Shown one piece after another: positions 1 through 40,614 of a DNA stretch of 40,614 bases (positions are counted from its first letter, which is position 1; each line of letters opens with the position of its first letter). The stretch is from a virus. The translations under genes and the position numbers were made by a program. The notes beneath the pieces are model-generated. The model ran no database searches. It saw nothing but the letters and a program-made list of their open reading frames with translations, and was not told where the DNA came from. Location: UHGV virus genome UHGV-0081829; one strand, written 5' to 3'.

Positions 1-302
1 TGGTCGCGGCGTTTGATGTATTGCTGGTTTCTTTCCCGTTCATCCAGCAGCGCCAGCACGGTAGCCGGATTGGCTGCGGCGATGAATTCAGCATTGGCCT
101 GCTGTTCCATTTGGAAATCTTCATCGAAACCGCTTTCAGGATGCGCTCCTTCAATTCTGCAAATGGGAAGATATCCAACAACGTCACGATGAATTAGCGC
201 ATCATCACAATCAAATCGGCTCTCTCCATATTCGAGCGACCACACACCACACGTTGCTTTCTCTGCCTTTTCACGCAGTGCCTGATAGTCAATCTTGCTC
301 AT
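1..302 (-). CDS. Ead/Ea22-like family protein, N-terminal part (C-terminus lies beyond the window start)
   Basis: Minus-strand ATG at 302-300 with AAGGAGG 6 nt upstream; own translation begins [16 protein letters not shown]... and stays open to position 1; N-terminus resembles Ea22-like proteins as recalled. Confidence 0.6.
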
Positions 303-466
303 TGGTTGCCTCCTTTGCGCAACATCGCATTCAGATATTTGTTGTCATTAACAGAACCGAAACTCTTTCTCTTAAGCGATTCCTCTCTCGATGGCATTGG
401 CTTTACGCGTTGGCGAATAATCATTTCTGCCGGAAGAATGCCGGGATTGTATGCAAGTCCTCTCAT
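299..466 (-). CDS. Hypothetical small protein
   Basis: Track ORF 299..499; best start is the ATG at 466 (GAGGAA 6 nt upstream); its stop overlaps the Ea22-like start (ATGA). Confidence 0.4.
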
Positions 467-476
467 GGTAAATTCC

Positions 477-773
477 TCAGTCATTACTGATAGCGCCATA
501 GCGTGAGCGGTAATTACGCAGGCGCGGGTCGATATATTCAGGGAATTTGTCTATTGTCGCTTTTCGCAACGGTCTCATTGCTGTTTCGTTTGTTCGGTCC
601 TTCTCATCTTTTAACGCGAGTTGTATATCGCGTCGGTACATCCGTTCTGCTTTTGTTTCTGGTGGCAGAGCAAGAAACGCGTCGAAATTGTTTTTGATAT
701 TTTCCAGCACCTCCGCCTTGGAGCTACCGGAGCAGTTGCGCTGGTCATCCGCACCATACAGAGGCGCTGGCAT
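477..773 (-). CDS. Hypothetical protein
   Basis: 98-aa ORF in the leftward operon; ATG at 773 with AAGG about 9 nt upstream; fills the gap between neighbours. Confidence 0.5.
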
Positions 774-796
774 AATGGGAGCCTTATTTTCAGTAA

Positions 797-1384
797 TCAG
801 AAAGGAGGGTAATCGTTCTGGCTGTAACCATAATCATCTGCATGATTCTGGCTTACGTTTTTAGAGCGATTGTCTTTATCTTTGAGATTGGCAACCATGT
901 TGGCGATAGTTTCTGGTTGCTTGCCTTCTGCCTTTTCTTTAAGGGTTTGACCTGTTTGTGCAATAAACGGGATGCGTATTTCCATCTGGTAGCTGTCTGC
1001 GCCAGTCTTTTTGTTTGTGGTTAATACTTTCTGGAGCACTAACCCGATTTTCTTTCCATGAAATTCAGGAGCAACAAATTTACTGGCGGAAACCATATGT
1101 TGCGTTAATTGTCCAATCCCGGCACACCCCATCATGGCGTGGACGACATTTGCGCCAAATTTATTTTCCGCTCCATCATTTTTCTGAACACAAACGCTAA
1201 GATATTGGATTTTACGTCCGTCGTCGGATTCGCCAGAAAACTCAATAAATTTGGCTCCTTTTTCTGATTGTTTTAGTTCTGCTTCAGTAATGGTAATGAT
1301 ATGAGCGCCAGTTTCGTTAATAAAACCACCTTGCCCTGCGGTCAGTGCTGCTTCTTCGTTATAAGTAAAAATTACGTTGCTCAT
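797..1384 (-). CDS. Sak4-partner protein, DUF669-like (putative ssDNA-binding/recombination accessory)
   Basis: 195-aa ORF whose start overlaps the stop of the upstream ATPase gene by 4 nt (1381-1384); pairing with a Sak4-type ATPase is typical; family name from memory. Confidence 0.5.
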   Translation of the reverse strand: MSNVIFTYNEEAALTAGQGGFINETGAHIITITEAELKQSEKGAKFIEFSGESDDGRKIQYLSVCVQKNDGAENKFGANVVHAMMGCAGIGQLTQHMVSASKFVAPEFHGKKIGLVLQKVLTTNKKTGADSYQMEIRIPFIAQTGQTLKEKAEGKQPETIANMVANLKDKDNRSKNVSQNHADDYGYSQNDYPPF

Positions 1385-2061
1385 GCGGCGTTTTCCTTAA
1401 TTTGATGAACATTATTGATGCCGTAGTAATCACAAACAGTGGCATCGACGAAAGAGAGATCGTTATCAATCTCATTGGAATCAAACATTCCCATTGGGGA
1501 TTTAACAGTGTCTGCACCGTTGTTTTTCGTGGTGAAAAAGAACTGGTCATCGCGGGTAAGAGTGCGAAGAACTATAGTAAACATGCCTTCGACAGTGATT
1601 TTCTCGTCCAGCATTTTGCCGATAGTTTTCATTTTCACGCGCCCCATAGGGGTTTCTTCGGTGTGCGCAAGAAAATAGACTCTCAGGTCATCAGGTGCAT
1701 CCTGTGCAGCCTTAATCACCTCCCATGCGTGGCGGCCTATCTCAGTAAATTTATCAAACGATTTTTCTTCTGAGCGACGCATAAACTCATTGCTCATCAC
1801 ATACTGGAAGTCATCAACAATAACGATTCTTTTCCCGTATTCGTGAGCACGCTTAATTACGGCAACTATTACATCCCATTTGTCAGTGGTAACTACGGTT
1901 CCTTTTTTTGCTCTGGCATCCCATGCCAGCCAGTCTTTTGATTTAAATGGTAGCGGCTTGCCTATTGGTTTTATAAGTATTGCTTCCTCTGGATTGATAT
2001 TTCTCATGCTGGTTGATTTTCCGGTGCCAGACTCACCGAGTATTAATGTCGCAGTTCCCAT
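1381..2061 (-). CDS. Sak4-like RecA-fold ATPase (AAA family, recombination)
   Basis: N-terminal Walker A GESGTGKST, Walker B-like IVIVDDF, about 226 aa; GAGG 7 nt before the ATG at 2061. Confidence 0.75.
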   Translation of the reverse strand: MGTATLILGESGTGKSTSMRNINPEEAILIKPIGKPLPFKSKDWLAWDARAKKGTVVTTDKWDVIVAVIKRAHEYGKRIVIVDDFQYVMSNEFMRRSEEKSFDKFTEIGRHAWEVIKAAQDAPDDLRVYFLAHTEETPMGRVKMKTIGKMLDEKITVEGMFTIVLRTLTRDDQFFFTTKNNGADTVKSPMGMFDSNEIDNDLSFVDATVCDYYGINNVHQIKENAA

Positions 2062-2069
2062 AATTTGCC

Positions 2070-2258
2070 TCAGAATGGTAATTCGGATGGGGAGGAAAGA
2101 AACTCGCGCTCATTCATGCGCTCTCTTTGTGCCTGCCATAAACAAAGTTGTTTCTTTGATTTATCTCCCGCTTTACGCCAGTAACGAGCCTCAGCAATGT
2201 GATATTCTCTTTTTAATCGACTTAACTCTGGAGTTTTCGCCAGTTCTACCGGAATCAT
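2070..2258 (-). CDS. Hypothetical small protein
   Basis: Track ORF 2070..2270; the internal ATG at 2258 has GGAGG 6 nt upstream and overlaps the upstream stop (ATGA). Confidence 0.4.
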   Translation of the reverse strand: MIPVELAKTPELSRLKREYHIAEARYWRKAGDKSKKQLCLWQAQRERMNEREFLSSPSELPF

Positions 2259-2494
2259 TTTGACCTCCATTTCCTGTAGGCTTCGACGGCCTCACGAAAC
2301 ATCTTTTCATCGCCAATAAAAGTGGCGATAGTGAATTTAGTCTGGATAGCCATAAGTGTTTTATCCATTTTTGGGAACTCCTGGCTGATTAAGTACGTCG
2401 ATGAGTCGTTTCCATCCGTCACGTAATTTACGGGTGATTCGTTCAAGTAAAGATTCGGAAGGGCAGCCAGCAACAGGCCACCCTGCAATGGCAT
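2255..2494 (-). CDS. Hypothetical small protein (start uncertain)
   Basis: 79-aa track ORF; a strong AAGGAG at about 2512-2517 actually serves an ATG in another frame (about 45-aa ORF), and an internal ATG (MDKTLMAIQ...) is an alternative start; gene model unresolved. Confidence 0.3.
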   Translation of the reverse strand: MPLQGGLLLAALPNLYLNESPVNYVTDGNDSSTYLISQEFPKMDKTLMAIQTKFTIATFIGDEKMFREAVEAYRKWRSK

Positions 2495-2589
2495 ATTGCA
2501 TGGTGTGCTCCTTATTTACGCTTTAAATTGCTCCGTGTATTCACTCGTTGGAATGAATACACAGCGCAGTGTTTATTCTGTTGTTAGTG

Positions 2590-2607
2590 CCAAAAATAAA
2601 GGCCGAC
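2590..2607 (-). terminator. Candidate intrinsic terminator after the membrane-protein gene
   Basis: Minus strand reads AGGCC-acatagtc-GGCCT followed by TTTATTTTT, immediately downstream of the 2622 stop. Confidence 0.4.
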
Positions 2608-2621
2608 TATGTGGCCTGAAA

Positions 2622-2987
2622 TTACTTAACCAATGATGCTGCATATTCGATAAGGTAAAGCTTTGGAGCAAGCCAAATTTTTAACCAGTCGAAATAATTG
2701 AAGAAAACAACAATAGAAGTAATCGCTATTCCTGATGTTACAAGTAGCGATAAAAGAACAATATCCGCATCATCTCCTTTATTCCATGCAAAAATCATCA
2801 GATAAACACATGCTATAATCACCAATACACAGAGAGCCTGAATCCCAGCTGATGATACGGCGTGCCACATCAAAAGCTGATGGATAACATCAGGAATCTG
2901 TGCTTGGCTAAATGAAACAGCCGCATCTATTCCATTGCTGGCTTTTTGCAGTAGTTCTACGAGAATCTTGTTTGCTTGTTCTTCCAT
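2622..2987 (-). CDS. Small membrane protein (two predicted TM helices), hypothetical
   Basis: 121 aa with hydrophobic stretches LCVLVIIACVYLMIFAW and LLSLLVTSGIAITSIVVFF; ATG at 2987 with AAGGTGA upstream. Confidence 0.55.
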   Translation of the reverse strand: MEEQANKILVELLQKASNGIDAAVSFSQAQIPDVIHQLLMWHAVSSAGIQALCVLVIIACVYLMIFAWNKGDDADIVLLSLLVTSGIAITSIVVFFNYFDWLKIWLAPKLYLIEYAASLVK

Positions 2988-3126
2988 ATATCACCTTAAA
3001 TAGTGGTTTGCGGTAGTAAAGATTGCGCCTGTCTTTTAACCACATCAGGCTCGGTGGTTCCTTCACTTTCCACAGTCAAAGGAAATGGGTAGACTGTTGT
3101 TTCCACAGTCAAAAGAAGGAGTTCAC

Positions 3127-3381
3127 ATGTCAGATGTATCTCTTGTTAAAATCATTGAGGATTTAAACGACAGAGTTTCAAAACTGAGCACTGAAAACCT
3201 CGCACTCCAGCAAGCGATCATTTCGATAGTTTCTGCTATGCCGCCTGAGCAATCATCACATGCAAAAAAGCATCTTGATGAAGTTATTAAGTTTGTTGAG
3301 AAGGAGGGTTCAGCGGCTGCTATTGAGGTGCTGGAAGTTCAGAAACCGATTTATCAAATGCTTTTCGCTCACGTGAAATAG
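3127..3381 (+). CDS. Hypothetical protein encoded antisense to the leftward early operon
   Basis: ATG at 3127 with AAGGAG 5 nt upstream (MSDVSLVK...); preceded by two 14-bp direct repeats; track ORF 3085..3381. Confidence 0.45.
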   Translation: MSDVSLVKIIEDLNDRVSKLSTENLALQQAIISIVSAMPPEQSSHAKKHLDEVIKFVEKEGSAAAIEVLEVQKPIYQMLFAHVK

Positions 3382-3736
3382 TTTCTGCCTGATTAATCAT
3401 TACCTGAGCCTGCTGGCGAATAGCTTCACTGGCAGGCTCTTTTGTTAAGAGTTGTGTGAAACCAGCGATAATGTTGCTGGCTAACATCTCAAACCGTTTT
3501 TTCTGAATATCTCTTGATTCTTCATCAATTGGGGGTTCAATATTGCTTAGTGCCGTTACATATACGTGAATTGCCGCTGACCGGACATCATCAGGAAGAT
3601 GTTCAAGTGTACTGGCTCTTGTTTTTACAAGTTCGATAATATTTGCCTTCTTAATATCTTCAGTTTTTTCATCAATTACTGATATAAAATTTTTTACTGA
3701 TGCTTCTAAAGAGCTTTCTAATTTACTTAAATCCAT
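3320..3736 (-). CDS. Hypothetical protein downstream of N
   Basis: ATG at 3736 (MDLSKLESS...) with GAGGT 5 nt upstream, directly after the N stop; 3' end overlaps the plus-strand gene by 62 nt. Confidence 0.45.
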   Translation of the reverse strand: MDLSKLESSLEASVKNFISVIDEKTEDIKKANIIELVKTRASTLEHLPDDVRSAAIHVYVTALSNIEPPIDEESRDIQKKRFEMLASNIIAGFTQLLTKEPASEAIRQQAQVMINQAETISRERKAFDKSVSELPAPQ

Positions 3737-3738
3737 AA

Positions 3739-4047
3739 TTACCTCGCCGTCAGTTGTTTTGATTTCCGGTAGCCTGCCGCGTAAATGGCTACGTTTGGCA
3801 GGCAAATACTTCCACTGCATTCGTCGGTATTTTGGTTACGAATGTTGCCGAGTGATATTGCTTTTTCAGAAAGGCTTAAACGCTTTCTTGGGGATTCCTG
3901 AACAGGTTCCTCACTGTCTGTGCCGAAGATAGAATCAATGATGTTGCAGATGGCATCACGCTCGATAGCCAGCTTTCTGCGCCGCTCATGACGGCGAGTT
4001 TTGGCATTTCCTGCAAATGTTGATTTTCCGTACACGATTACCGTCAT
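3739..4047 (-). CDS. N: Early antitermination protein N (P22 gene 24 type)
   Basis: Begins MTVIVYGKSTFAGNAKTRRHERRRKLAIERD with an arginine-rich motif, ends ...AAGYRKSKQLTAR, closely matching P22 gp24 as recalled; GAGGAAAA before the ATG at 4047. Confidence 0.8.
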   Translation of the reverse strand: MTVIVYGKSTFAGNAKTRRHERRRKLAIERDAICNIIDSIFGTDSEEPVQESPRKRLSLSEKAISLGNIRNQNTDECSGSICLPNVAIYAAGYRKSKQLTAR

Positions 4048-4166
4048 GATATTTTCCTCATGTGAAATGGCTTTGGTGGTGATGCGCCAGGTGCTGATCT
4101 TCTGGTTGCTGTCGTTGCAGCTGCAATTCACATCACCGCCAAACCCATCTCGTTTGGTATCTGTTT

Positions 4167-4200
4167 GCGCTTTGTCAGCGCCCCATCGAAGTTAAAGAGC
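4167..4200 (-). promoter_or_regulatory. nutL site (boxA GCTCTTTAAC, boxB hairpin GCGCT-GACAA-AGCGC)
   Basis: Minus strand reads GCTCTTTAAC, 9 nt, then GCGCTGACAAAGCGC, upstream of N in the leftward transcript. Confidence 0.6.
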
Positions 4201-4452
4201 CTGCCAATCTGTTCCGTTTGGCTTCCAGCTTCCTGCTGATGGCTAAATAGTACGATGTGTACTTTATTGAGTCAATACAAAATGTTCTAAATGTTGTTAG
4301 TTTTTTATAACATATTGTATTTTATGGATTTGTTTTTTGCAGGGGGAATTGTTTGGTATGTGAGGGATCAGAATTGCACTGTTTAGCAAGTTGTATCTAT
4401 CAATTTTTCAATAAATACAATTGGTTATTGTGTTATTAGGTGTGTGGATCGT

Positions 4453-4483
4453 GAGGAAAAGAAAACCCGGCGCTGAGGCCGGG
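4453..4483 (-). terminator. Intrinsic terminator ending the cI cargo operon
   Basis: Stem CCCGGC/GCCGGG with a 6-nt loop (4466-4483), followed on the minus strand by TTTTCTTTT, 6 nt past the stop at 4489. Confidence 0.7.
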
Positions 4484-4488
4484 TTGTA

Positions 4489-5241
4489 TTATGCTGCAAG
4501 TCTCTTAACCCAAGTCTCTCTTTTGGAGAATGGTAGAACTTGGCTTGATTCATGGAAGAGTAAGGAGAGTTGTTGCATTTGGTCACCAATTGCTTCGCTG
4601 TCTATAACAACAAATCTGTTGTTATACTCCTCACTTGAAGCTTTAAGATCAATTAGTTTCCCAAGCAATGAGTAAGCACTATTCCAGCTTCCTCCGTGTT
4701 TCACGCTTGATGTAAAAACGTATTTAGGTATGTCGGTTTTTATTGTTACAGGGACGGTAATTTGATGTCCACTCAAGCCATATACGTTTTCACGAAGAGA
4801 AAGTGCGTCTCTAAGCTCTGTGTGATATAGATAATCAATAACCATACTTTCAAACTTTTCAGCTTGAACTGGCTGATACCAGTCTAACGACAAAGTTGAT
4901 GCGAGTATACCAGCTCTAATTATGTTCGATGTAATAGCACCGACATCCTTTTCTGTTGCCCAAGCAATGATTTCTCCTCGATCATTGAGCTCTGCGCCTT
5001 CTTTAAGCAGTAATTGTCGTATCTCATCAAGTCGTTTTTTGGTAAGCGAGATCCCTCTTGCCTCCATATTCATTAAGGCATCGCATCTGTCACTAACTAA
5101 ATACCTACCATTGACTTCACGGATAAAGGCACCGACATGCTCTCCATCATCACAGTAAGTGAATGGACTGATAATTCTCAAGGTCTTGCCCATTGGATGG
5201 CATTCGAAACCTAGTTGTGAGATCACTGTTGAGCACATCAT
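4489..5241 (-). CDS. Hypothetical 250-aa protein, third gene of the cI-downstream cargo cassette
   Basis: ATG at 5241 overlaps the upstream stop (ATGATG/TGA at 5236-5241); no family recognised; AT-rich by eye. Confidence 0.5.
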   Translation of the reverse strand: MMCSTVISQLGFECHPMGKTLRIISPFTYCDDGEHVGAFIREVNGRYLVSDRCDALMNMEARGISLTKKRLDEIRQLLLKEGAELNDRGEIIAWATEKDVGAITSNIIRAGILASTLSLDWYQPVQAEKFESMVIDYLYHTELRDALSLRENVYGLSGHQITVPVTIKTDIPKYVFTSSVKHGGSWNSAYSLLGKLIDLKASSEEYNNRFVVIDSEAIGDQMQQLSLLFHESSQVLPFSKRETWVKRLAA

Positions 5242-5795
5242 ATTCCAAACCCCATTTGCCCCGACTCATCTTCAAGTGGTAAAGGTATTCTCCCAGAGTA
5301 AGTTATGTTCAGATGTTTACAGAAGTAATTCCAATACCCTACCAGGTCATCTGGGTTTATGTCATCTTCGATTGGAAACGCTATTCTATCACTATAGTAT
5401 CCAGCTTCTTCATAGTATACATGGTAGTGAGCACCGTAAATGATATCTTGGTACTTCGGATGATCGACCTTGTAACTATTCGTGTGTTTGTCAAAGTGAT
5501 AGGTATCTACCGCGAAAACCCTCTTGTTATGATAGAAAGCAATAATATTTATTTTAGGGTAAGAAATCGGGTCATCAGGTTCTGAATCCTGATCTGGTTT
5601 CCATTTCAGTTCAAACTTTAGCCCTTGTATAGGTATACAATCCTCATCCAAGGGGATGATATGAGCTTGTAGCCACATATCAGAGCGACTTGGTTTCTGT
5701 TTCCATTTAACTCCAGAAAAGTTAACTATTTTTTTACAATAAAGTACTTTATCAACTTCTATTTGGCTTGGCTGATAATCATCTATTTTTGCCAA
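5238..5795 (-). CDS. Hypothetical 185-aa protein, second gene of the cargo cassette (start uncertain: TTG at 5795 or ATG at 5678)
   Basis: Track ORF starts on TTG; first in-frame ATG is at 5678; rich in Tyr/His/Asp/Pro (..YGAHYHVYYEEAGYY..); no family recognised. Confidence 0.45.
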   Translation of the reverse strand: MAKIDDYQPSQIEVDKVLYCKKIVNFSGVKWKQKPSRSDMWLQAHIIPLDEDCIPIQGLKFELKWKPDQDSEPDDPISYPKINIIAFYHNKRVFAVDTYHFDKHTNSYKVDHPKYQDIIYGAHYHVYYEEAGYYSDRIAFPIEDDINPDDLVGYWNYFCKHLNITYSGRIPLPLEDESGQMGFGI

Positions 5796-5854
5796 TGTTT
5801 ACCGCCCTGTAAATTGTAGATAAAAGAGGTTTCATCACCCAAACGTCTCTTCAC

Positions 5855-6196
5855 TCATCCGAAGAAGCAGCAATCCGGGTCAGCACGCACAAGCTCAAGC
5901 GCATCGGTCAGCGAAAGCTCAGTACTGTACTGATGCCATTTCATATCCTTCCGCATCCAATAGATTTTCCATCTATCCAGAGAACGTATGTACTTGATTC
6001 TTGCTGATGGCAGGATGTTTGTTTCACCAGGATTGCCCTGCCACACGGGGCGCTGTTCACCGATATCTATCGTTTGGTCATTGATGCTATAAACAATATC
6101 CAGTTCATTGCGGATATGTTCAGGCGGCCTTATGCTTTCAATGAATTGGTGAACTTCTTTTTTTACTGCTTGATATTCAAGGTCAGTGAACGCCAT
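5855..6196 (-). CDS. Hypothetical 113-aa protein immediately downstream of cI (possibly DUF3024-like, unverified)
   Basis: AAGGAGG 5 nt before the ATG at 6196, only 9 nt after the cI stop; Trp-rich C-terminal half; flanked by a 17-bp direct repeat. Confidence 0.55.
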   Translation of the reverse strand: MAFTDLEYQAVKKEVHQFIESIRPPEHIRNELDIVYSINDQTIDIGEQRPVWQGNPGETNILPSARIKYIRSLDRWKIYWMRKDMKWHQYSTELSLTDALELVRADPDCCFFG

Positions 6197-6205
6197 CTAT
6201 CCTCC

Positions 6206-6865
6206 TTACCCAAACGTCTCTTCAGGCCATTGACTGGCGATAACCTTGCCTACAATGTTGCAGTTCTCATTGCATGGGATGATTGGAAACTGCGGGTTAA
6301 GTGGTTGCAAAAACACTTGCCCACTATCTTTGATCAGTTTTTTGAATGTGAATTCATCGCCACCAAGTCTAGCGATACAGAAATCACCAGGATCAACAGG
6401 TTGTTCAGGGTCAACCAAGATTAACATTCCATCAGGAAAACTTGGTTTCAATCCTGCCGGAGCTGTCATTGAGTTGCCTTCAACCTCAAGCCAGAATGCA
6501 GAATCACTGGCTTTTTTGGTTGTGCTTACCCATCTCTCCGCATCACCTTTGGTAAAGGTTCTAAGCTCAGGCGAGAACATCCCGGCCTGAACATGAGAAA
6601 AAACAGGGTACTCATATTGTTTTTTAACGGGGGCAGATGAGTATTCGCCAACAGGTGAAAATGTACCGTCGTGGTTGAACGAGACGTTATCAATACCAAG
6701 GTATTTAAACACCATACCAATCTCGTCAAGAGATGGATGACGAGATCCGCGCAACCAGTGACCAATTCCACCCTGCGTCATACCAAGCTCTTCAGCTAAC
6801 TTCTCTTGAGTTATGCCGAGTTCTTTCATTCTGGATCTAGCCAGTTCATACCATTTCATTTTCAT
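6206..6865 (-). CDS. cI: CI-type repressor (XRE HTH + S24 LexA-like peptidase domain)
   Basis: [26 protein letters not shown]; C-terminal GNSM and FKKL Ser/Lys dyad context; C-terminal domain resembles P22 C2; start at 6865 or 6859 (MKMKWYEL, second ATG has better AAGGA spacing). Confidence 0.85.
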
Positions 6866-6976
6866 ATCCTTATTATTACGCTCTGTACTAAAATCATCCA
6901 TGCACAAGATGTATTTTTTGTTTGCATTCCAAAAGTACATATCGTATTATTGTTTCATGGTTACTATGGAGGGCAT
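6866..6976. promoter_or_regulatory. OR/pR/pRM divergent control region between cI and cro
   Basis: 110-bp AT-rich spacer between divergent genes; GTACT (6885-6889) and AGTAC (6935-6939) half-site-like motifs; candidate pR at 6922-6950. Confidence 0.5.
6922..6950 (+). promoter_or_regulatory. Candidate pR promoter (-35 TTGCAT, 17-bp spacer, -10 TATTAT)
   Basis: TTGCAT at 6922-6927 and TATTAT at 6945-6950, about 27 nt upstream of the cro ATG; the AGTAC motif lies in the spacer. Confidence 0.45.
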
Positions 6977-7192
6977 ATGAGCAACCTACGAAAATATCGA
7001 GAGTCACTGAATATCTCTCAAACAACACTTGCTAAGGCGGTTGGATGCACACAGGGAGCTATCGGACATTGGGAATCTGGTCGTCGCTTCCCAGACCTTA
7101 AAACATGCCGTGCTCTTGTTGCGTGCCTAAACAAGTTAGGCGCAAAAGTCAGTCTTGATGACGTGTTTCCACCGGAACACAAAGCCGCTTAA
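6977..7192 (+). CDS. cro: Cro-like HTH repressor
   Basis: ATG at 6977 with GGAGGG upstream; 71 aa; HTH ISQTTLAKAVGCTQGAIGHWESG; divergent from cI. Confidence 0.7.
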   Translation: MSNLRKYRESLNISQTTLAKAVGCTQGAIGHWESGRRFPDLKTCRALVACLNKLGAKVSLDDVFPPEHKAA

Positions 7193-7202
7193 TAAGCGGA
7201 TC

Positions 7203-7237
7203 CGCTCTTTATCAATCTGCACCGCCGACAACGCGGT
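7203..7237 (+). promoter_or_regulatory. nutR site (boxA CGCTCTTTA, boxB ACCGC-CGACAAC-GCGGT)
   Basis: CGCTCTTTA at 7203-7211 and a GACAA-loop hairpin at 7221-7237 just after the cro stop; shares motifs with nutL. Confidence 0.45.
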
Positions 7238-7301
7238 AACTAATTAAGCACTCATCGAAAGATGAGTATTAGTGATTATTTACCTATGGAAATAGTAAGA
7301 A

Positions 7302-7601
7302 ATGGAACAAACAAGTTACAGCAAACTATCACAGCGTGACGTTGATCGCGCAGAAACAGATTTACTCATCAACCTGTCAACGCTTACCCAGCGCGGTCTG
7401 GCAAAGATGATTGGCTGTCATGAATCAAAGATAAGCAGAACGGACTGGAGATTTATTGCTTCGGTCTTGTGTGCTTTTGGAATGGCATCAGACATTAGCC
7501 CGATTAGCAGGGCTTTTAAGTATGCGCTTGATGGACTCACCAATAAAAAACGCCCGGTGTGCAAGACCGAGCGTTCTGAACAAATCCAGATGGATTTTTA
7601 A
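7302..7601 (+). CDS. cII: CII transcriptional activator
   Basis: 99 aa; C-terminus ...LTNKKRPVCKTERSEQIQMDF matches lambda CII (...LTNKKRPAATERSEQIQMEF) as recalled. Confidence 0.85.
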   Translation: MEQTSYSKLSQRDVDRAETDLLINLSTLTQRGLAKMIGCHESKISRTDWRFIASVLCAFGMASDISPISRAFKYALDGLTNKKRPVCKTERSEQIQMDF

Positions 7602-9324: not shown

Positions 9325-10170
9325 ATGACGCTGGATGAAAAGATCTCCCAACTGGAGAAAAAACTTGCAGAATTGAGTTCTCCGCCAATTGCTATCGAGC
9401 ATACAGCTGTAGAAATTGGCACTGGCATCTGTGAAAAACATGGTGAGTTTGAGCAGCGTAACCGTTACTCTACTGGGCCAATTAAGTTTGCCTCAAGACC
9501 TAGCGAATGCCCGGAATGCATGAGAGATGAGCTTATTCGGCTACAGGCAGAGAAGATTAAAATCGACGAGGAATCACGTAAGCGCAATGTCGAGTTTCTG
9601 TTGAATAATCTTGATATTCCTGAACGATTCAAGGGTTGCACACTACAGAACTACGAGCCAGTCAACGACGATGCAAAGAGAGTGCTCAGGGTGTGTCAGG
9701 CATACGCCAGCAAATGGCCTGAGAGGTTACAGAAAGGCGGTGGGCTGGTTATGTGTGGAAAGCCTGGTACTGGAAAGAATCATCTTGCACTGGCTATCGC
9801 CCGGCACGCAATTACGGAACATCAAAGCTCAGCTATTTTCACAACGGCGCTGAAAATTGCCAGAGAATATAAATCAACATGGTCGAAAAACTCCACCCGC
9901 ACAGAGGATGAAGTGATCCGACAGTTCACTAAACCTGACCTGCTAATTATCGATGAGGTTGGTGTGCAGTTTGGAAGCGAGGCGGAAAAGATGATCATGT
10001 TCGAAATCATCAACACCCGCTACGAGCGCATGAAGCCAACAATCCTGATTAGCAACCAGAGCAAAGATGAACTGTCTGCATTCATTGGTGAGCGTGTTAT
10101 TGACAGGATGAATGATGGCGGCGGGTGCACTCTTGCGTTTACATGGGATAGTTACAGGAGCAGATCGTGA
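9325..10170 (+). CDS. DnaC-like helicase loader (IstB/DnaC-type AAA+ ATPase)
   Basis: Walker A GKPGTGKNHLALAIA, Walker B LLIIDEVG; ATG at 9325 with AGGAG 5 nt upstream. Confidence 0.8.
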   Translation: MTLDEKISQLEKKLAELSSPPIAIEHTAVEIGTGICEKHGEFEQRNRYSTGPIKFASRPSECPECMRDELIRLQAEKIKIDEESRKRNVEFLLNNLDIPERFKGCTLQNYEPVNDDAKRVLRVCQAYASKWPERLQKGGGLVMCGKPGTGKNHLALAIARHAITEHQSSAIFTTALKIAREYKSTWSKNSTRTEDEVIRQFTKPDLLIIDEVGVQFGSEAEKMIMFEIINTRYERMKPTILISNQSKDELSAFIGERVIDRMNDGGGCTLAFTWDSYRSRS

Positions 10171-10457
10171 CTGGAAAAGAAATCATCCTGGAATATCTGA
10201 AAACTCATGAACAATTCTCCCCACATGAATTAGCACTGATCACCGGAATACCGAATAACAGAATCGCTCAAGCAGCAAGGCATATGGTGAAACAAGGGCA
10301 TTTGAGTGTTGTTGAGCGTAAGTGGAAGACGGTTATTTATGCAAAGCGCAAAGTGAAGAAGGAGCCAATTAAAAGAAATCCAGATGGTACGGGGTGGGGA
10401 TGTGCAAATCCAATGACGGCGTTTATTAATAGGGCGCTTATGGAGGTAAGGCAATGA
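10167..10457 (+). CDS. Hypothetical protein (possible winged-helix DNA-binding)
   Basis: GTG start overlapping the upstream stop (GTGA) with AGGAG 6 nt upstream; 96 aa. Confidence 0.5.
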   Translation: MTGKEIILEYLKTHEQFSPHELALITGIPNNRIAQAARHMVKQGHLSVVERKWKTVIYAKRKVKKEPIKRNPDGTGWGCANPMTAFINRALMEVRQ

Positions 10458-10723
10458 ATAAAAAACAATTAGCCATTCTCGAAAAGGCATGGGATGCACT
10501 AATATCATGCGCTTTGAAAGAACAGGCACTACCAATAATCCAGACCAAATCGAAAATAGCCAGGAAGTTATGCGATGACGGATTCCTGAGTGAAGTTGAG
10601 ATTACGCACCAGATGGTAACGTTCAAAGGGTATGAGATAAATCATCATGGTATAGCGGCGTATTGCTCCCATCTTCCTGATGACGTTGACATTGATGAAA
10701 TGGAAAGGGAGATGAAGCAATGA
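10454..10723 (+). CDS. Hypothetical protein
   Basis: ATG at 10454 with GGAGG 7 nt upstream; overlaps the upstream stop. Confidence 0.5.
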   Translation: MNKKQLAILEKAWDALISCALKEQALPIIQTKSKIARKLCDDGFLSEVEITHQMVTFKGYEINHHGIAAYCSHLPDDVDIDEMEREMKQ

Positions 10724-11124
10724 CCATCTACATCACTGAGCTAATAACAGGCCTGCTGGTAATCGCAGGCCTTTTTATTTGGGGGGGGGAGGGAAGTGTG
10801 GCTGACTGGCAAATTCCAATAATCATTCTTGCCGGAGCTTCGCTGGTTGCTGGCTTTATCCTTCTGAAAAAGCATAAAGACCGTGATCAAAAAGTCGAAG
10901 TTCTCTATGGGTATCCAGCGAACAGCACAACATGGCTGACCATTTACCACTACCGAAAATCAGGCCGCTGGGTATTCGAATGGGATGATCTGTTTGCTGA
11001 AAAGCGACCAAAGTCATGGGGAGACATCAGCGAATGCATGATGTTTGAAGAAAGAAAATCCGGCGCAACTCGAGAAGAGTTTAACGAAGCGTGGAGGTTA
11101 TTAAGTGAGAGAGGGTATCAATGA
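10720..11124 (+). CDS. Membrane protein (two N-terminal TM helices), hypothetical
   Basis: ITGLLVIAGLFIWGG and IIILAGASLVAGFILL hydrophobic segments; GGGAG upstream; coupled start/stop overlaps. Confidence 0.5.
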   Translation: MTIYITELITGLLVIAGLFIWGGEGSVADWQIPIIILAGASLVAGFILLKKHKDRDQKVEVLYGYPANSTTWLTIYHYRKSGRWVFEWDDLFAEKRPKSWGDISECMMFEERKSGATREEFNEAWRLLSERGYQ

Positions 11125-11357
11125 GCAAAATTAAATCTGGTTATCCAGGGAATGGGGAATACCCGAAGACATATTTACCTGTAACTGTGACCACTCAATC
11201 TAGGCATCCACATCATTTCAAGCAAAGTGGTACAGCTTATTGGAGTGGCAAGCGGTGGATAGGTATTGATGGGTTCAAAATTGGGTATGCAAAGGTAATT
11301 AAATGGGAATTTAACATCGCAAACTGGAGTTCATCCCATGAGGAAACTAACGTTTGA
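11121..11357 (+). CDS. Hypothetical protein
   Basis: ATG at 11121 with GAGGG 6 nt upstream; 78 aa. Confidence 0.45.
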   Translation: MSKIKSGYPGNGEYPKTYLPVTVTTQSRHPHHFKQSGTAYWSGKRWIGIDGFKIGYAKVIKWEFNIANWSSSHEETNV

Positions 11358-11778
11358 ACTAAGAAGCCCCATCCATCAGCAGAACGCCATTCAAGCTATC
11401 CAGCAAATCCTTCCAGACCCAACCAAACCAATCGTAGTAACCATTCAGGAACGCAACCGCAGCTTAGACCAAAACAGGAAGCTATGGGCCTGCTTAGGTG
11501 ACGTCTCTCGTCAGGTTGAATGGCATGGTCGCTGGCTGGATGCAGAAAGCTGGAAGTGTGTGTTTACCGCAGCATTAAAGCAGCAGGATGTTGTTCCTAA
11601 CCTTGCCGGGAATGGCTTTGTGGTAATAGGCCAGTCAACCAGCAGGATGCGTGTAAGCGAATTTGCAGAGCTATTAGAGCTTATACAGGCATTCGGTACA
11701 GAGCGTGGCGTTAAGTGGTCGGACGAAGCGCGACTGGCTCTCGAATGGAAAGCGCGATGGGGAGACAGGGCGGCATGA
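11338..11778 (+). CDS. ninB: NinB recombination protein
   Basis: 146 aa, near-identical to lambda NinB as recalled ([64 protein letters not shown]...). Confidence 0.9.
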
Positions 11779-11951
11779 GACGACAGCGACGAAGTATCAC
11801 CGACATCATCTGCGAAAACTGCAAATACCTTCCAACGAAACGCTCCAGAAATAAACGCAAGCCAATCCCAAAAGAATCTGACGTAAAAACTTTCAACTAC
11901 ACGGCTCACCTGTGGGATATCCGGTGGCTAAGACATCGTGCGAGGAAATGA
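11775..11951 (+). CDS. ninE: NinE protein
   Basis: ATG at 11775 overlaps the NinB stop (ATGA); [23 protein letters not shown]... matches lambda NinE as recalled. Confidence 0.8.
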
Positions 11952-11953
11952 CA

Positions 11954-12337: not shown

Positions 12338-12506
12338 CCCATCCCAATCCATTCAATACCAGAAAGAAAGCGTCGAGCGAGCTTTAACGTGCGCTAACTG
12401 CGGTCAGAAGCTGCATGTGCTGGAAGTTCACGTGTGTGAGCACTGCTGTGCAGAACTGATGAGCGATCCGAATAGCTCAATGTACGAGGAAGAAGACGAT
12501 GAATGA
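12330..12506 (+). CDS. ninF: NinF protein
   Basis: ATG at 12330; MLSPSQSIQYQKESVERALTCANCGQKLHVLEVHVCEHCCAELM... matches lambda NinF as recalled. Confidence 0.8.
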   Translation: MLSPSQSIQYQKESVERALTCANCGQKLHVLEVHVCEHCCAELMSDPNSSMYEEEDDE

Positions 12507-36290: not shown

Positions 36291-37164
36291 AAATCACAGT
36301 CTTCGGTTTGACTTCACGAATGAATCATCAGCATTTGATAAAAATGGAAACAATAAAATCTCCATCAGAAATGTTAAGTCAACAGTATCCCTGAACTTTG
36401 TTACCGGTCGGGGAGGTGCTCAGGCTGATATATCTCTTTACGGCTTAGGAATTGAAAGACTTGCTGATATATCAGGGAAGGCTGATGGTATTGTTGGGGA
36501 AGGTCAGAAGTTAAATGTTGAGGTATTTGCTGATGATTCTCTTGTTTTCTCCGGCACGATGCTTTCATCAATAGCAAACATGAATTCTGCTCCTGAAAGC
36601 AGTCTGATGATAACAGCCTCTTCTAATGTTGATTTACAGAACATGCCAGCAAGCCCGTTTACAGCGCAGGGGGCGCAAAGTGTTGAAGATGTCATCTCAT
36701 CCATTTGTGCAAGTGCAGGTTATGAAGCTGTGTTTAATAATGTAAAAGGGATGACAACATCAGGAAGTCCGCATTTTGAAGGAAGTGTTTTTGAGCAACT
36801 TTATAGGGTCTGTTCAGATTATGGACTGGCGATGTCAGCTACGCCACCGACAAAAGTAGAGTTCTGGCCTTCAGAAAAAAACAGAGACGATGTAATTCCG
36901 TTTATATCCAGAGAATACGGACTTGTTGGATATCCTGTATTTTCAAATGGGGGACTGATGTTTCAGACGCAATATTCATCTCTCCTTTGCATTGGAAGAT
37001 ATGTGGATATCAAAACAGAACTACCACATGCAAGCGGAAGGTATAAGTTAACCTCCGTTCGGCATGAATTATCATCATGGATGCCAAATGGTTCATGGCA
37101 CTCAATATGTATTGCCGCCAGAACAGCGGAACAAAGAGCAGAGGCGCAACAGAATAATGGATAA
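36283..37164 (+). CDS. Baseplate hub-like protein (TTG start)
   Basis: TTG at 36283 with GAGGA 8 nt upstream; the track's ATG at 36175 would overlap the upstream gene by 116 nt. Confidence 0.5.
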   Translation: MYKNHSLRFDFTNESSAFDKNGNNKISIRNVKSTVSLNFVTGRGGAQADISLYGLGIERLADISGKADGIVGEGQKLNVEVFADDSLVFSGTMLSSIANMNSAPESSLMITASSNVDLQNMPASPFTAQGAQSVEDVISSICASAGYEAVFNNVKGMTTSGSPHFEGSVFEQLYRVCSDYGLAMSATPPTKVEFWPSEKNRDDVIPFISREYGLVGYPVFSNGGLMFQTQYSSLLCIGRYVDIKTELPHASGRYKLTSVRHELSSWMPNGSWHSICIAARTAEQRAEAQQNNG

Positions 37165-37849
37165 GCAACTATTTACTCCAACGCCTGCTCAGGTAAGTGA
37201 GGCTCAATCTCAGGAATATATTTTTGAGATGCTGATGTCTGGATATTTCTTCATTGAGTTAGCGAGAGTTCAGGAAGTCAGGGGGGAAGCACCGGATTTA
37301 GTTGTTGACACTCTTCCTTTACTAACCAGAACAGACCGTACAGGAAAAATGATTTCTAACTCGGTTTTATATGATATTCCTGTATGGCGGTTACAGAGAG
37401 GTAACAGTGCTGTAATTATGGACCCTGTGGCAGGTGATATTGGTCTGATTGCGGTCTGCGACAAAGACACATCACTGGTAAGAAAAAATCGTAAAGAATC
37501 AGTACCTGGAAGCAAAAGACGACACAGCAAATCTGATGCAATTTATCTTGGTGGGGTATTAAACATTGCGCCTACTCAATTCATTGAATTTGCTGATGGT
37601 GCAATAAACATAACCACGCCTAATCCACTAAATATTAAATGTTCATCGTTAAATATTGCTGCTCCTGGTGGAGTCAACATGAATACTCCTTTACTTAAAG
37701 TTAGCGGCGATATTCAGGATAATGCAAGTTCACAGTCATCTACCGTTAAAAATTTAAGGGACAACTATAACAATCACAAACATTCTGTTTCAGGAGTACA
37801 AAATGGTGGGTCAACAATAAATTCCAATGCAACGGATAAACCGACATGA
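37157..37849 (+). CDS. Baseplate spike / assembly protein V-like
   Basis: ATG at 37157 (MDKQLFTP...) overlapping the upstream stop; track ORF 37064..37849. Confidence 0.5.
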   Translation: MDKQLFTPTPAQVSEAQSQEYIFEMLMSGYFFIELARVQEVRGEAPDLVVDTLPLLTRTDRTGKMISNSVLYDIPVWRLQRGNSAVIMDPVAGDIGLIAVCDKDTSLVRKNRKESVPGSKRRHSKSDAIYLGGVLNIAPTQFIEFADGAINITTPNPLNIKCSSLNIAAPGGVNMNTPLLKVSGDIQDNASSQSSTVKNLRDNYNNHKHSVSGVQNGGSTINSNATDKPT

Positions 37850-38205
37850 CATACAGAACTATGCAACTGGACACTTCTACGTGGGACTTGACGCTTGACG
37901 GAAATGGCAATCTGGCGATCGCAGAAGAATCATATTCTGTTGCTCAGGATGTCGCCAGTGCGTGCCTGGTATTTTCTGGAGAGTGTTATTACGACAATAC
38001 GCTTGGGATTCCATGGAAGGCAGAAGTTCTTGGCAGGCGACCATCTCCTGGTTTTATTGCTCAGAAAATGCAGGCTGAAGCACTCAAATTACCTGTCGTT
38101 GAGGATGCTCTGGCATCAGTTTTCTTTGACAAGAATACACGTACAACTCGCGGCACAATCCGCGTTACAGATATCAATGGTAATATTGCACAGGCCACCT
38201 TATGA
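37846..38205 (+). CDS. Baseplate protein (W/gp25-like position)
   Basis: 119 aa; ATGA overlap; precedes the J-like gene. Confidence 0.45.
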   Translation: MTYRTMQLDTSTWDLTLDGNGNLAIAEESYSVAQDVASACLVFSGECYYDNTLGIPWKAEVLGRRPSPGFIAQKMQAEALKLPVVEDALASVFFDKNTRTTRGTIRVTDINGNIAQATL

Positions 38206-39431
38206 CGATATTAAATACGGCTGTTCCTGATGTAACCATCACTGAAAACGGTCTTTCAGTTCCCGACATAGCGGATGTGCTGGCGGGAAGACTTACAGAC
38301 ATGTCAACGGCTCTTGGTGGTGGTGCAAGTCAATCACTGAGTTCACCGCAAGGGCAGATCGCACAGTCTGACACTGAAATTATTGCTCAGGAATACGACA
38401 AACTTCTTTGTTTGTTTAATCAAATTAACCCTGACTTTTCAAACGGCAGATTCCAGGACGGGATTGGTCGGATTTACTTTATGGAGCGGATCGCCGCTCA
38501 GGGAACCGTTGTTACAGCAACATGCATTGGTCAGGTTGGAACAGCCATACCTGCGGGTAGCACTGCTGTTGATGCGAGTGGATATATATATCAGTCAATT
38601 GACAATGCCGTAATACCCTCATCAGGCTCTGTTGATGTGCAGTTTGTCAACACAACAACCGGGCCAATTCCGTGTGCAGCCGGCTCCCTGAATCAGATTT
38701 ATCGAGCCGTTTCCGGGTGGGATGCTGTAAATAATATTAGCCCTGGGGTCGTTGGTGTTGATGTTGAATCACGGATCGCCTTTGAAACTCGCCGGAGGCA
38801 ATCAGTTGCCAGAAACAGTAGAAATCAGGATGCGTCTACATTAGCAGCGTTACTTGCGACAGATGGTGTGCTTGATGCTTACGTATGGTCAAACAGAACT
38901 GCAGAGACAGTAAATAAAGGAACAACGAATTTCCCGATTCTTGCGCATTCTGTTTATATTTGTGTTTATGGTGGGGCTGATACTGATGTTGCTGAGTCAA
39001 TATTCAATACTTATAACCCCGGCGCTAATATGAATGGTGATACAACGTTCACTGTTTACGATAACGTTAATTACATGCCGCCATATCCATCTTACGCCAT
39101 GCAATGGCAAAAGGCATCACCTACGCGGGTTTACTTTAAGGTAAATATCGATGCCTCACTAAATCCCCCAAGTGATATAACTAAGCAAGTAAAGAAAATG
39201 GTTGCTACTGTATTCAATGGAGGGTATGAGGGTATTGGAAAGGCACGAATTGGTTCTACGATAAATGCTGGTAAATACTATGCCCCTGTTATTTCAATAT
39301 CTCCTGATACAGTTGGCATTTTGTCTCTTGAAATTTCTCTCGATGGTTCACTATACGGACCTGCTGTGACTATGGGCATAGACCAGGTTCCAACCATTCA
39401 GGAATCAGATATCACTGTTACATTGTCGTAG
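38202..39431 (+). CDS. Baseplate J-like protein
   Basis: 409 aa; ATGA overlap; position and size consistent with a baseplate wedge J-family protein. Confidence 0.55.
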   Translation: MTILNTAVPDVTITENGLSVPDIADVLAGRLTDMSTALGGGASQSLSSPQGQIAQSDTEIIAQEYDKLLCLFNQINPDFSNGRFQDGIGRIYFMERIAAQGTVVTATCIGQVGTAIPAGSTAVDASGYIYQSIDNAVIPSSGSVDVQFVNTTTGPIPCAAGSLNQIYRAVSGWDAVNNISPGVVGVDVESRIAFETRRRQSVARNSRNQDASTLAALLATDGVLDAYVWSNRTAETVNKGTTNFPILAHSVYICVYGGADTDVAESIFNTYNPGANMNGDTTFTVYDNVNYMPPYPSYAMQWQKASPTRVYFKVNIDASLNPPSDITKQVKKMVATVFNGGYEGIGKARIGSTINAGKYYAPVISISPDTVGILSLEISLDGSLYGPAVTMGIDQVPTIQESDITVTLS

Positions 39432-39441
39432 GGGGAGCGGT

Positions 39442-40080
39442 ATGTGGGAAGACACAATTCTTACCCAGTACTCTGCAAGCAAAAAATTACTATCCATCAT
39501 TGATACCTTTAATCAGGCAATTAGCCTTGATGATTTCACTGATGAGTTTATTAAAAAAATATGGGATTTGACCACCTGTGAGACATTCGGGTTGGACATG
39601 TGGGGTAAAATAGTTGGAATAAGCCGTTATATTAATGCTCCAATAGAAGCCAGTTCTTTCGGATTCAATGAAGCAGATGGCAAAGATCCAGATTACCCAA
39701 CTCCTTTCAACGATTCACCTTTTTTTGGTGGTGTACAGGAGACAACGAATGTCAGGTTGAGTGATGATGCTTACAGAACCCTCATATTTTGCAAAGCATT
39801 CACAAATATAAGTATTGCCACGATCCCTGAAATAAACAGGTTTCTAAATATATTGTTTTATCAAAGAGGGAGAGCATATTGCGTAAATTATCGAGATATG
39901 ACAATAGGAATAACGTTTGAGTTTGATCTTGCGCCATACGAAGAATCGATTCTCACGAATTATGAGGTGATGCCAGTTCCGAGTGGTGTTCTGGTTAATA
40001 TACGTCAAATCATTAGTCCTTATTTTGGCTTTTCATCTGATGCCTATCCGTTTAATGATGGCACATTTTATAGGAATTAA
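39442..40080 (+). CDS. Tail protein (gp I / Mu gp48-like position)
   Basis: 212 aa; GGGGGAG 5 nt upstream; immediately precedes the tail-fibre gene. Confidence 0.45.
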   Translation: MWEDTILTQYSASKKLLSIIDTFNQAISLDDFTDEFIKKIWDLTTCETFGLDMWGKIVGISRYINAPIEASSFGFNEADGKDPDYPTPFNDSPFFGGVQETTNVRLSDDAYRTLIFCKAFTNISIATIPEINRFLNILFYQRGRAYCVNYRDMTIGITFEFDLAPYEESILTNYEVMPVPSGVLVNIRQIISPYFGFSSDAYPFNDGTFYRN

Positions 40081-40082
40081 GC

Positions 40083-40614
40083 ATGAATCGTTCTGACTCA
40101 CCTAAAAAACAACCCAAGCCATTTGGGGTTAATGGACAGAGAGGGGCAATATTGCCAACCACCCCTGCAGGAGATAACTCAGCATCGTATGAACAGGGGT
40201 TTCCTCCAATAACAATGATCCTGAAATCTGCTGGCGGTTTGCCGCCAAAAGGCCAGGATATGAACCAAATTTTATACGAACTTTCTGCTCTGGGTAGATG
40301 GTCGAGTACCGGGGCGCTGAATACTTTTGATTCTGAATTTGCTTCGGAGATTTCTGGATATCCGTCAGGGGCGATGCTCATCTCGGACGATGGGGAAAGA
40401 ATATTCATTAATACAACAGAAGGAAATCTATCTGATCCTAACAACAATGGTGTTGGGTGGAAAGATGCTCTTTCATACCTTGGTTTGGGTGATGGCTCAG
40501 GGATACTTATAAATTGTCAGGTGTTTAAAAGCTCAGGCACATACACACCGACAAAAGGTACAAGATTTATTATTGTTGAAATTGTTGGTGGTGGTGGGGC
40601 CGGTGGTGGTTGTC
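40083..40614 (+). CDS. Tail fibre protein, N-terminal part (runs off the window end)
   Basis: ATG at 40083; frame open to the last base; own translation MNRSDSPKKQPKPFGVNGQRG...VEIVGGGGAGGG ends in a glycine-rich segment. Confidence 0.6.
   Translation, partial: MNRSDSPKKQPKPFGVNGQRGAILPTTPAGDNSASYEQGFPPITMILKSAGGLPPKGQDMNQILYELSALGRWSSTGALNTFDSEFASEISGYPSGAMLISDDGERIFINTTEGNLSDPNNNGVGWKDALSYLGLGDGSGILINCQVFKSSGTYTPTKGTRFIIVEIVGGGGAGGGC

Follow-up and report, generated by a model that had tools for sequence, protein, structure and literature searches.

Lambdoid early genes joined to an E217/PB1/Bcep781-type contractile-tail module in an Escherichia coli prophage

We analysed a stretch of 40,614 nucleotides (nt), UHGV virus genome UHGV-0081829, referred to here as the window; the integrase end of the prophage and its distal tail-fibre genes lie outside it. 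Open reading frame (ORF) listing, composition and tRNA scans reveal a tightly packed phage segment that is transcribed leftward over its left 6.9 kb and rightward over the rest, except for a block at 31.0-32.9 kb. Lambda/P22-type early and nin genes and a phage-21-type lysis region occupy positions 1-17,050, and a packaging, head and contractile-tail module occupies 17,346-40,614, joined to the early/lysis half at the start of terS at 17,346. We consider it very probable that the window is most of a temperate lambdoid E. coli prophage whose late operon encodes an E217/PB1/Bcep781-type contractile-tailed virion, that this prophage belongs to the GF-2/Edno5-type group of enterobacterial and Vibrio lambdoid myoviruses, and that it arose by the usual lambdoid modular exchange.

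Gene content of the two halves

The right half of the window encodes the following virion functions.

17346..25798, plus strand: packaging and head module (PHROG, Pfam)
17346-17936, plus: small terminase subunit, TerS
17884-19410, plus: large terminase subunit, TerL
from 19410, plus: portal (Pfam Phage_portal_3)
20866-21684, plus: MuF (PHROG/Pfam)
from 21819, plus: DUF2213 protease/scaffold (Pfam)
from 23049, plus: minor head/cement protein
from 23532, plus: major capsid protein (45% amino acid identity to Bcep781 gp12)
to 25798, plus: head completion and neck proteins
25788..31040, plus: neck and tail module
25788-26671, plus: neck
26668-28158, plus: sheath (Pfam DUF3383, 1e-106)
28170-28604, plus: tube (Pfam E217_Gp32, 5e-17)
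28604-29011, with a -1 frameshift extension to 29226, plus: tail chaperone (slippery TTTTTTA)
29223-31040, plus: tape measure with an SLT domain (Pfam SLT)
35176..40614, plus: baseplate block (PHROG, Pfam)
35176-35991, plus: baseplate ORF
35988-36290, plus: baseplate ORF
36175-37164, plus: hub
37064-37849, plus: baseplate ORF
37846-38205, plus: wedge
38202-39431, plus: Baseplate_J protein
39442-40080, plus: DUF2612 protein
from 40083, open to the window end, plus: 5' part of the tail-fibre gene

The families that mark an E217/PB1/Bcep781-type virion are present in this module, namely the DUF3383 sheath, the E217_Gp32 tube, Phage_portal_3, MuF, DUF2213, the capsid family, Baseplate_J and DUF2612. 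The tail of E217 is known from solved PDB structures, and the window's sheath matches the solved E217 gp31 sheath (chains of 8ENV, 8FVG and 9B42) at 1e-16 to 2e-18. Family assignment places both sheath and tube in the E217/PB1/Bcep781 lineage of myoviruses. When the virion ORFs were searched by tblastn against lambda (1-24 kb), P22 and Mu, no match was obtained at E<=1e-3, and both a Mu-like tail and virion homology to lambda or P22 were rejected on this basis. An earlier note, made from the DNA letters, had described sheath, tube and baseplate J-like genes and a portal/MuF/scaffold/capsid set unlike lambda or P22, which these searches bear out. It had also proposed a frameshifted chaperone pair: a T TTT TTA heptamer lies in register at 28987-28993, near the end of the chaperone gene and exactly where the -1 frame opens, and the resulting extension runs for 79 codons to 29226. 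Both heptamer and extension recur at the corresponding position in one E. coli prophage and in the phages Edno5, GF-2 and IKEMa6-1 (Vibrio). Contractile particles have been seen by electron microscopy for the relatives Edno5 and GF-2 (PMC6372524), with heads of roughly 60-70 nm and tails of 75-80 nm; for the window a contractile tail is predicted from the genes.

The left half carries the early, immunity, replication, nin and lysis genes.

1..6196, minus strand: leftward (PL) early operon (94% nt identity to the HK620 left arm)
477-773, minus: abc2-like gene
797-2061, minus: hkaK/hkaL homologues
2456-2514, minus: lambda cIII thermoregulator RNA element in the cIII region (Rfam RF01804, 88.5 bits, full length)
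3739-4047, minus: N of the P22 gp24 type (Pfam N_peptide, 5e-40; 68% amino acid identity to P22 gene 24 over 87% of the length of N)
4489-6196, minus: three accessory genes between N and cI, in a rexAB-like position (PADLOC)
6206..7601, both strands: immunity region with cI, cro and cII (Pfam and direct reading of the sequence)
6206-6940, minus: cI repressor (Pfam HTH_3 and Peptidase_S24)
6977-7192, plus: cro (Pfam HTH_3)
7302-7601, plus: cII (Pfam Phage_CII, 6e-35)
7611-8423, plus: HNH endonuclease (99-100% amino acid identity to a gene of the E. coli CEC0009 prophage annotated as HNH endonuclease)
8426-9322, plus: replication initiator (99-100% to a CEC0009 prophage hypothetical protein)
9307-10170, plus: DnaC/IstB-like helicase loader (99-100% to a CEC0009 prophage ATP-binding protein)
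10167..14570, plus: nin region and Q, starting with a Ren-like gene (PHROG; identities to P22 and HK620)
11338-11778, plus: NinB (94% amino acid identity to P22)
about 11775-11951, plus: NinE (85% to P22)
11912-12337, plus: NinX-like (PHROG)
12300-12506, plus: NinF (94% to P22)
12499-13221, plus: Roi/KilAC (PHROG)
13221-13511, plus: HNH protein of the nin region (PHROG)
13508-13870, plus: RusA (PHROG)
13867-14055, plus: NinH (98% to HK620)
14052-14570, plus: Q (phrog_943, 2e-93)
14633..14788, plus: tRNA-Asn(GTT) and tRNA-Thr(TGT), between Q/PR' and the holin gene (ARAGORN; Rfam tRNA, 55 and 61 bits)
14906-15121, plus: holin, 71 residues (PHROG holin families)
15121-15618, plus: signal-anchor-release (SAR) type endolysin (PHROG endolysin; PDB 3HDE/3HDF and 4ZPU)
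15603-16082, plus: Rz spanin (PHROG Rz)
16285..17048, plus: KilA-N/ORF11CD3 protein and hkbL-like protein (Pfam KilA-N, ORF11CD3; 96-100% amino acid identity to HK620 hkbK/hkbL)

This half has the hallmarks of a lambdoid phage. Divergent cI (a helix-turn-helix protein with an S24 autopeptidase) and cro are followed by cII, N-type early and Q-type late antiterminators flank the replication and nin genes, and nucleotide segments are held in common with accepted lambdoid phages. The segments form a patchwork, matching HK620 at 78-98% and P22 at 69-98% nt identity, and Shiga toxin (Stx) phages and JEP4 also match. Among the replication genes at 7611-10170, Pfam matches are to IstB_IS21 and Bac_DnaA; a PDB search with N returned only a chance match (E 0.4). 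The three genes between cI and N are candidate phage-defence genes, with PADLOC matches to PDC-M24B (3e-10), PDC-M24A (5e-4, weak) and PDC-S43/DUF3024 (7e-42).

The lysis cassette is of the phage-21 type, with an R21-type endolysin bearing an N-terminal SAR segment and a small holin gene upstream. Along its whole length the endolysin aligns with PDB 3HDE/3HDF and with RrrD (4ZPU), with E about 1e-110, and its N-terminal segment of 18 residues, read in the sequence, is rich in Gly and Ala, which fits the signal-anchor-release type. We take the holin to be of S21 identity, and 3HDE to be the phage 21 enzyme. The assignment of the early, nin and lysis genes to lambda, P22 or phage-21 types, made in the earlier note for N, NinB/E/F/H, the holin and the SAR endolysin, holds throughout. 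At 14548-14577, overlapping the end of Q, lies a near-consensus promoter-like site (11/12; TTGACA, 18-nt spacer, CATAAT). A promoter-like site followed by tRNA genes upstream of the holin gene is the arrangement of Stx-phage late regions. A scan of the window with Rfam at its gathering threshold found the cIII thermoregulator and the two tRNAs.

Relatives among isolated phages and prophages

Electron microscopy by Katharios and colleagues placed Edno5 among the myoviruses, and the same study described its cI/cro/cII genes as lambda-like and its ImmI as P22-like (PMC6372524); Edno5 has also been included in a panel of lambdoid phages (PMC12315714). The annotated genomes of Edno5 and GF-2 match the window in gene order. 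Beginning with int, they have a left arm with cIII and an N-like gene, the regulatory and replication genes cI, cro, cII, O and P, the nin genes with NinG, and then Q and the lysis genes. Packaging and head genes (TerS, TerL, portal, MuF, DUF2213, capsid and neck) come next, and after these the tail genes for a DUF3383 sheath, a tube, a frameshifted chaperone and an SLT tape measure. As in the window, an Arc/Ant cassette separates the tape measure gene from the first of the baseplate genes, and baseplate J, DUF2612 and fibre genes follow. Klebsiella temperate phages, a Vibrio phage and prophages of Salmonella and E. coli have this architecture too, and it is common in enteric bacteria in the form of "GF-2-like" prophages. 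In a protein search, the window's sheath is 73-75% identical to those of Edno5 and GF-2. The earlier note had called the joining of these modules unusual, while allowing that close relatives already characterised as a defined phage genus would speak against this. Because a defined genus with the same architecture, Gofduovirus (Edno5, GF-2), has been described, the mosaic is not unusual; these relatives are, however, moderately and not closely similar. The E. coli element is a new, uncharacterised member of an already described architecture, and no isolated phage closely represents it.

Closer relatives are found among prophages. Among 5,426 complete genomes of E. coli, at least 14 contain the virion half at >=80% coverage and 95-98% nt identity; strains Z1323CEC0009, IGC_RcoliRes_1.1 and STEC299 are examples of carriers. 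Across E. coli prophages the virion module is 91-97% identical in nucleotides to that of the window and the early and lysis alleles differ; one of them (NZ_CP148453) adjoins torT and has its own lambdoid early region with the same continuity from lysis genes through terS to virion genes. In Salmonella prophages (contigs L013-L015) the head and tail genes are 82-85% identical in nucleotides and 84-98% in amino acids, except for TerS at 56%, while the early and lysis alleles again differ, and a cluster of capsid proteins at >=90% identity spans E. coli, Salmonella, Enterobacter and Citrobacter. By these comparisons the element is part of a coherent, widespread and uncharacterised enterobacterial prophage lineage.

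The element might instead be a decaying or domesticated prophage that yields no infectious phage and is retained, for instance, for its accessory or defence genes. The August 2025 INPHARED set contains no close isolated phage, E. coli relatives carry insertion sequences beside or within the prophage, and one relative has a pseudogenised tail-fibre region. We nevertheless regard decay as unlikely: the 60-odd ORFs of the window are all intact and closely packed, the programmed frameshift site is conserved, and the proteins recur with high conservation in many genomes of E. coli and Salmonella.

The same architecture and immI slot, together with tail and baseplate proteins that are 60-81% identical (41-54% for the hub and spike proteins), raise the question of whether the element belongs to Gofduovirus itself. 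Although architecture and orthologous virion genes are shared with that genus, whole-genome similarity falls short. The genus criterion of the International Committee on Taxonomy of Viruses is 70% whole-genome nucleotide identity. Only about 8.0 kb of the window's 40.6 kb aligns to Edno5, at 65-73% nt identity, and the element is therefore not a Gofduovirus by the 70% criterion, the implied intergenomic similarity being roughly 13%. The head proteins are only 30-50% identical, and tblastn finds no match for TerL in Edno5 or GF-2. The early and lysis alleles differ as well, the window having the phage-21-type holin and SAR endolysin and a P22-type N; its island measures 4.1 kb, as opposed to 1.5-2.1 kb in Edno5 and GF-2, with extra minus-strand genes and a second anti-repressor; and the host is E. 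coli rather than the Edwardsiella of GF-2 and Edno5. Membership of Gofduovirus is thus very improbable, and the E. coli element would probably define a new genus.

The nearest isolated relatives differ by region, as amino acid identities to Klebsiella phage RCIP0114 and to Edno5, GF-2 and IKEMa6-1 illustrate:

TerL: RCIP0114 27%; Edno5/GF-2/IKEMa6-1 no match
Head genes, portal to 24936-25367: RCIP0114 41-69%; Edno5/GF-2/IKEMa6-1 27-50%
Neck, sheath, tube and chaperone, 25788-29226: RCIP0114 30-39% or no match; Edno5/GF-2/IKEMa6-1 52-81%
Tape measure: RCIP0114 44% over 20% of the length; Edno5/GF-2/IKEMa6-1 about 30%
Baseplate, 35176-40080: RCIP0114 29-50%; Edno5/GF-2/IKEMa6-1 58-73% (hub and spike 41-59%)

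RCIP0114 is one of several Klebsiella temperate phages (with ST899-OXA48phi17.1, ST15-VIM1phi2.1 and "Lambdavirus PDP110P1") that combine a lambdoid early region (NinB, exo, SAR endolysin) with the same type of myovirus module. They have the closest head genes of any isolated phage (portal 62%, capsid 69%, MuF 57% amino acid identity), but differ in their tail and baseplate proteins, which are 29-50% identical, and RCIP0114 has no immI island. The difference between the relatives of the head and those of the tail would reflect either an older exchange or how sparsely isolated phages have been sampled. Gofduovirus and Klebsiella temperate phages have been found akin to virulent Obolenskvirus phages through their major capsid and sheath proteins (PMC10888812). 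More broadly, the virion families of the window are homologous to those of E217/PB1-like (Pbunavirus), Bcep781-like and Obolenskvirus phages, its sheath being about 32-35% identical to those of the listed Pseudomonas, Burkholderia and Xanthomonas phages; unlike the temperate lambdoid element in the window, these phages are virulent and have no lambdoid regulatory backbone. Conversely, the P22-like podoviruses (P22, HK620, CUS-3, JEP4) have segments of N, nin, Rz and immI in common with the window but possess a short tail and a virion module without homology to that of the window.

Junctions between the modules

The KilA-N/ORF11CD3 and hkbL-like genes are the last genes in common with the podovirus HK620, and nucleotide similarity to that phage breaks off just inside terS, at 17,354, which corresponds in HK620 to where hkbM begins. 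A megablast search of the virion half against 50,697 phage records, those of the INPHARED set, gave no near match, apart from the patches at immI and KilA and a match to Vibrio phage IKEMa6-1 at 70% identity, so that protein-level searches were needed to place it. The junctions are intergenic: a 297-nt gap precedes terS, the strand switches after the tape measure gene, and a terminator-like hairpin at 35136-35157 stands before the baseplate genes. The earlier note had read modular exchange from ATGA-coupled insertions and terminators at the island and at several junctions. The terminator is matched by the hairpin, and the exchange itself by the HK620/P22 patchwork and the breakpoint at 17,354. 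The coupled insertions are not borne out, since all 16 ATGA/GTGA overlaps (16/16) fall inside modules, in the nin, tail and baseplate genes, and none at a module junction; we rejected them as marks of insertion and regard them as ordinary translational coupling. An origin by modular exchange is well supported.

The two terminase subunits differ in their nearest relatives. TerL is 98% identical in amino acids to Salmonella prophages, compared with 56% for TerS. Vibrio phage IKEMa6-1 has a TerS that is 69% identical, and gives no match to TerL. This points to a possible further breakpoint between terS and terL.

An abrupt switch in nearest relatives, at 17,346-17,354, and an intergenic gap of 297 nt before terS are also what one would expect of two adjacent elements, or of an assembly chimera, in which a defective lambdoid prophage stands beside an unrelated myovirus prophage. 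We hold this to be extremely improbable. The interval from the lysis genes to terS contains no integrase gene, no att site and no second regulatory region, and the succession of Q, lysis and terS is the normal order of a lambdoid late operon. The same contiguity is found in a complete E. coli chromosome and in the sequenced virion genomes of Edno5 and GF-2, and a similar order of Q-type antiterminator, lysozyme and terS is seen on the Salmonella contigs, the antiterminator and lysozyme genes both preceding the head/tail module there.

Contractile tails of a different type have long been familiar among lambdoid phages, in SfV and in the lambdoid myovirus SfI, which is closely related to SfV (PMC3636060). 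That the window holds a phage of this best-known class of lambdoid myoviruses, with Mu-like tail genes behind a lambdoid early region, a possibility touched by the comparison with Mu-like references proposed in the earlier note, has practically no chance of being correct, since no virion protein matches Mu at tblastn E<=1e-3 (Mu L, the sheath, Mu M, the tube, and the baseplate genes included) and the sheath and tube are of the DUF3383/E217_gp31 and E217_Gp32 types.

Some considerations weigh against our reading of the window as a temperate lambdoid prophage with an E217/PB1/Bcep781-type virion in the GF-2/Edno5 group. That this particular prophage can be induced and makes particles is a prediction, and the window lacks int/xis and most of the fibre gene, which limits any judgement of completeness. 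Promoters, terminators and the sar-like RNA are put forward from consensus matches or by inference, as is the read-through of the island. Finally, the head genes are much nearer to those of Klebsiella phages and the tail genes much nearer to Gofduovirus, so that "GF-2-like" describes the architecture and the tail better than the head.

The immI-like island and its possible roles

Between the tape measure and baseplate genes lies a cassette with the following features.

31041..35157, both strands: immI-like island, 4.1 kb, between tape measure and baseplate (layout as the annotated P22 sieA-mnt-arc-sar-ant, NC_002371)
31061-31462, minus: small ORF in the P22 sieA position, with an N-terminal hydrophobic, signal-peptide-like segment (promoter-like site, 10/12, at 31489-31461)
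31527-31877, minus: small ORF in the P22 sieA position
32113-32580, minus: MuF C-terminal paralogue, 155 residues (BLASTP to the phage's own MuF)
32604-32852, minus: mnt, Mnt-like ribbon-helix-helix protein (Pfam Arc, 2e-10)
32875-32921: overlapping divergent promoter-like sites (consensus matches only)
32952-33098, plus: arc, Arc-like protein of 48 residues (PHROG Arc-like)
about 33096-33164, minus: putative sar-like antisense element (promoter-like site and hairpin)
33165-34094, plus: ant (phrog_245, 5e-95; 57% amino acid identity to P22 Ant)
34128-34904, plus: second anti-repressor
34904-35125, plus: 73-residue ORF
35136-35157: terminator-like hairpin before the baseplate genes

The features of a P22-type immI are present, with Mnt- and Arc-type repressor genes divergent and ant downstream of arc, and the layout is that of P22 itself (genes in the sieA position, mnt, divergent promoter-like sites, arc, a putative sar, ant). 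The cassette is 87% identical in nucleotides to the immI of the P22-like phage CUS-3. The earlier note was thus correct in recognising an immI-like region; the Mnt/Arc/Ant layout, the likeness to CUS-3 and the 57% identity of Ant to that of P22 bear it out. A putative sar promoter at 33199-33171 on the minus strand (10/12, with TG) lies just inside ant, in the same geometry to the ant ATG as P22 Psar, and a 12-bp hairpin in the arc-ant spacer is kept in P22, Edno5 and GF-2 (fold z-score -5.4). The promoter-like site and conserved hairpin suggest that a sar-like antisense RNA may be made; the Rfam scan of the window at gathering score gave no match to a sar family.

A segment of about 1 kb at 34086-35157, which contains the second anti-repressor, the 73-residue ORF and the hairpin, is 98.8% identical in nucleotides to the KilA region of the podovirus JEP4. 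The CEC0009 prophage, otherwise 97% identical, lacks it (34086-35137). Because of this identity to JEP4 and the absence from CEC0009, the stretch 34086-35157 is probably a recent insertion into the island. Pfam searches of the island ORFs at 31054-32103, 34128-34904 and 34904-35125 gave no match, and PADLOC gave no credible match to island ORFs. In the Salmonella relatives the same slot (contig positions about 17,500-19,800) holds Arc/Arc/P22_AR_N genes on L014 and genes for an HTH repressor and a Bro-N protein on L013 and L015. In Klebsiella RCIP0114 the slot is empty, with 12304-14220 directly followed by 14224.

From the homologous circuits of lambda and P22 we infer how such a prophage would work. 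CI and Cro would set immunity, the P22 gp24-type N would antiterminate the early operons, and CII/CIII would govern the establishment of lysogeny. Antitermination by Q at PR' would then yield one long, terminator-resistant late transcript through the two tRNAs, the lysis genes, terminase, head, tail and tape measure, with the chaperone made partly by -1 frameshifting at TTTTTTA. This transcript would cross the immI island, the Q-modified polymerase reading through its terminator, and continue into the baseplate and fibre genes. The island, through mnt, arc, ant and the sar-like antisense RNA, may provide secondary immunity and antirepression in the manner of P22: Mnt would silence ant in the lysogen, and Arc and the sar-like RNA would limit Ant during infection. 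The minus-strand genes of the island are probably expressed in the lysogen. Lysis would be carried out by the holin, SAR endolysin and Rz set.

The ORF at 32113-32580 starts 24 nt downstream of mnt on the same strand. Its product is 23% identical to the C-terminal ~110 residues of the phage's own MuF (20866-21684; BLASTP, E 3e-11), and the two have an H-x...C-x-C motif in common. In isolated phages we found no stand-alone orthologue, matches being confined to full-length MuF proteins; the exact protein is encoded on >150 E. coli contigs. A speculative idea, to which we give little credence, has two parts. The protein, co-expressed with Mnt in the lysogen, might act as a decoy for a partner of MuF, blocking head assembly of superinfecting relatives with the same head module or restraining spontaneous assembly. 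The tape measure/baseplate junction of lambdoid myoviruses might in turn serve as a conserved site at which cassettes expressed in the lysogen can land, their terminators being harmless there because the Q-modified polymerase ignores them.

Taken together, a small fraction of E. coli (~0.3% of complete genomes) carries an uncharacterised element related to the GF-2/Edno5 lambdoid myoviruses at genus level. The prophage illustrates lambdoid mosaicism cleanly, its breakpoints coinciding with gene boundaries, and it would be of use to taxonomy, probably as a new genus among the temperate phages related to E217/Bcep781. It would also be useful for prophage annotation, where the only labels that such elements receive are "DUF" proteins or "GF-2-like" PHASTER hits; GF-2, its PHASTER label or its accession appears in at least 19 genome papers, mostly surveys of Salmonella, Klebsiella, Cronobacter, Dickeya, Yersinia and Ewingella. 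Beyond such bookkeeping the significance is small, and only two leads have some originality: the paralogue of the MuF C-terminal domain, and the slot of variable content that lies between the tape measure and baseplate genes. If the idea of a MuF decoy were true, it would represent a new kind of superinfection exclusion at the P22 sieA position.

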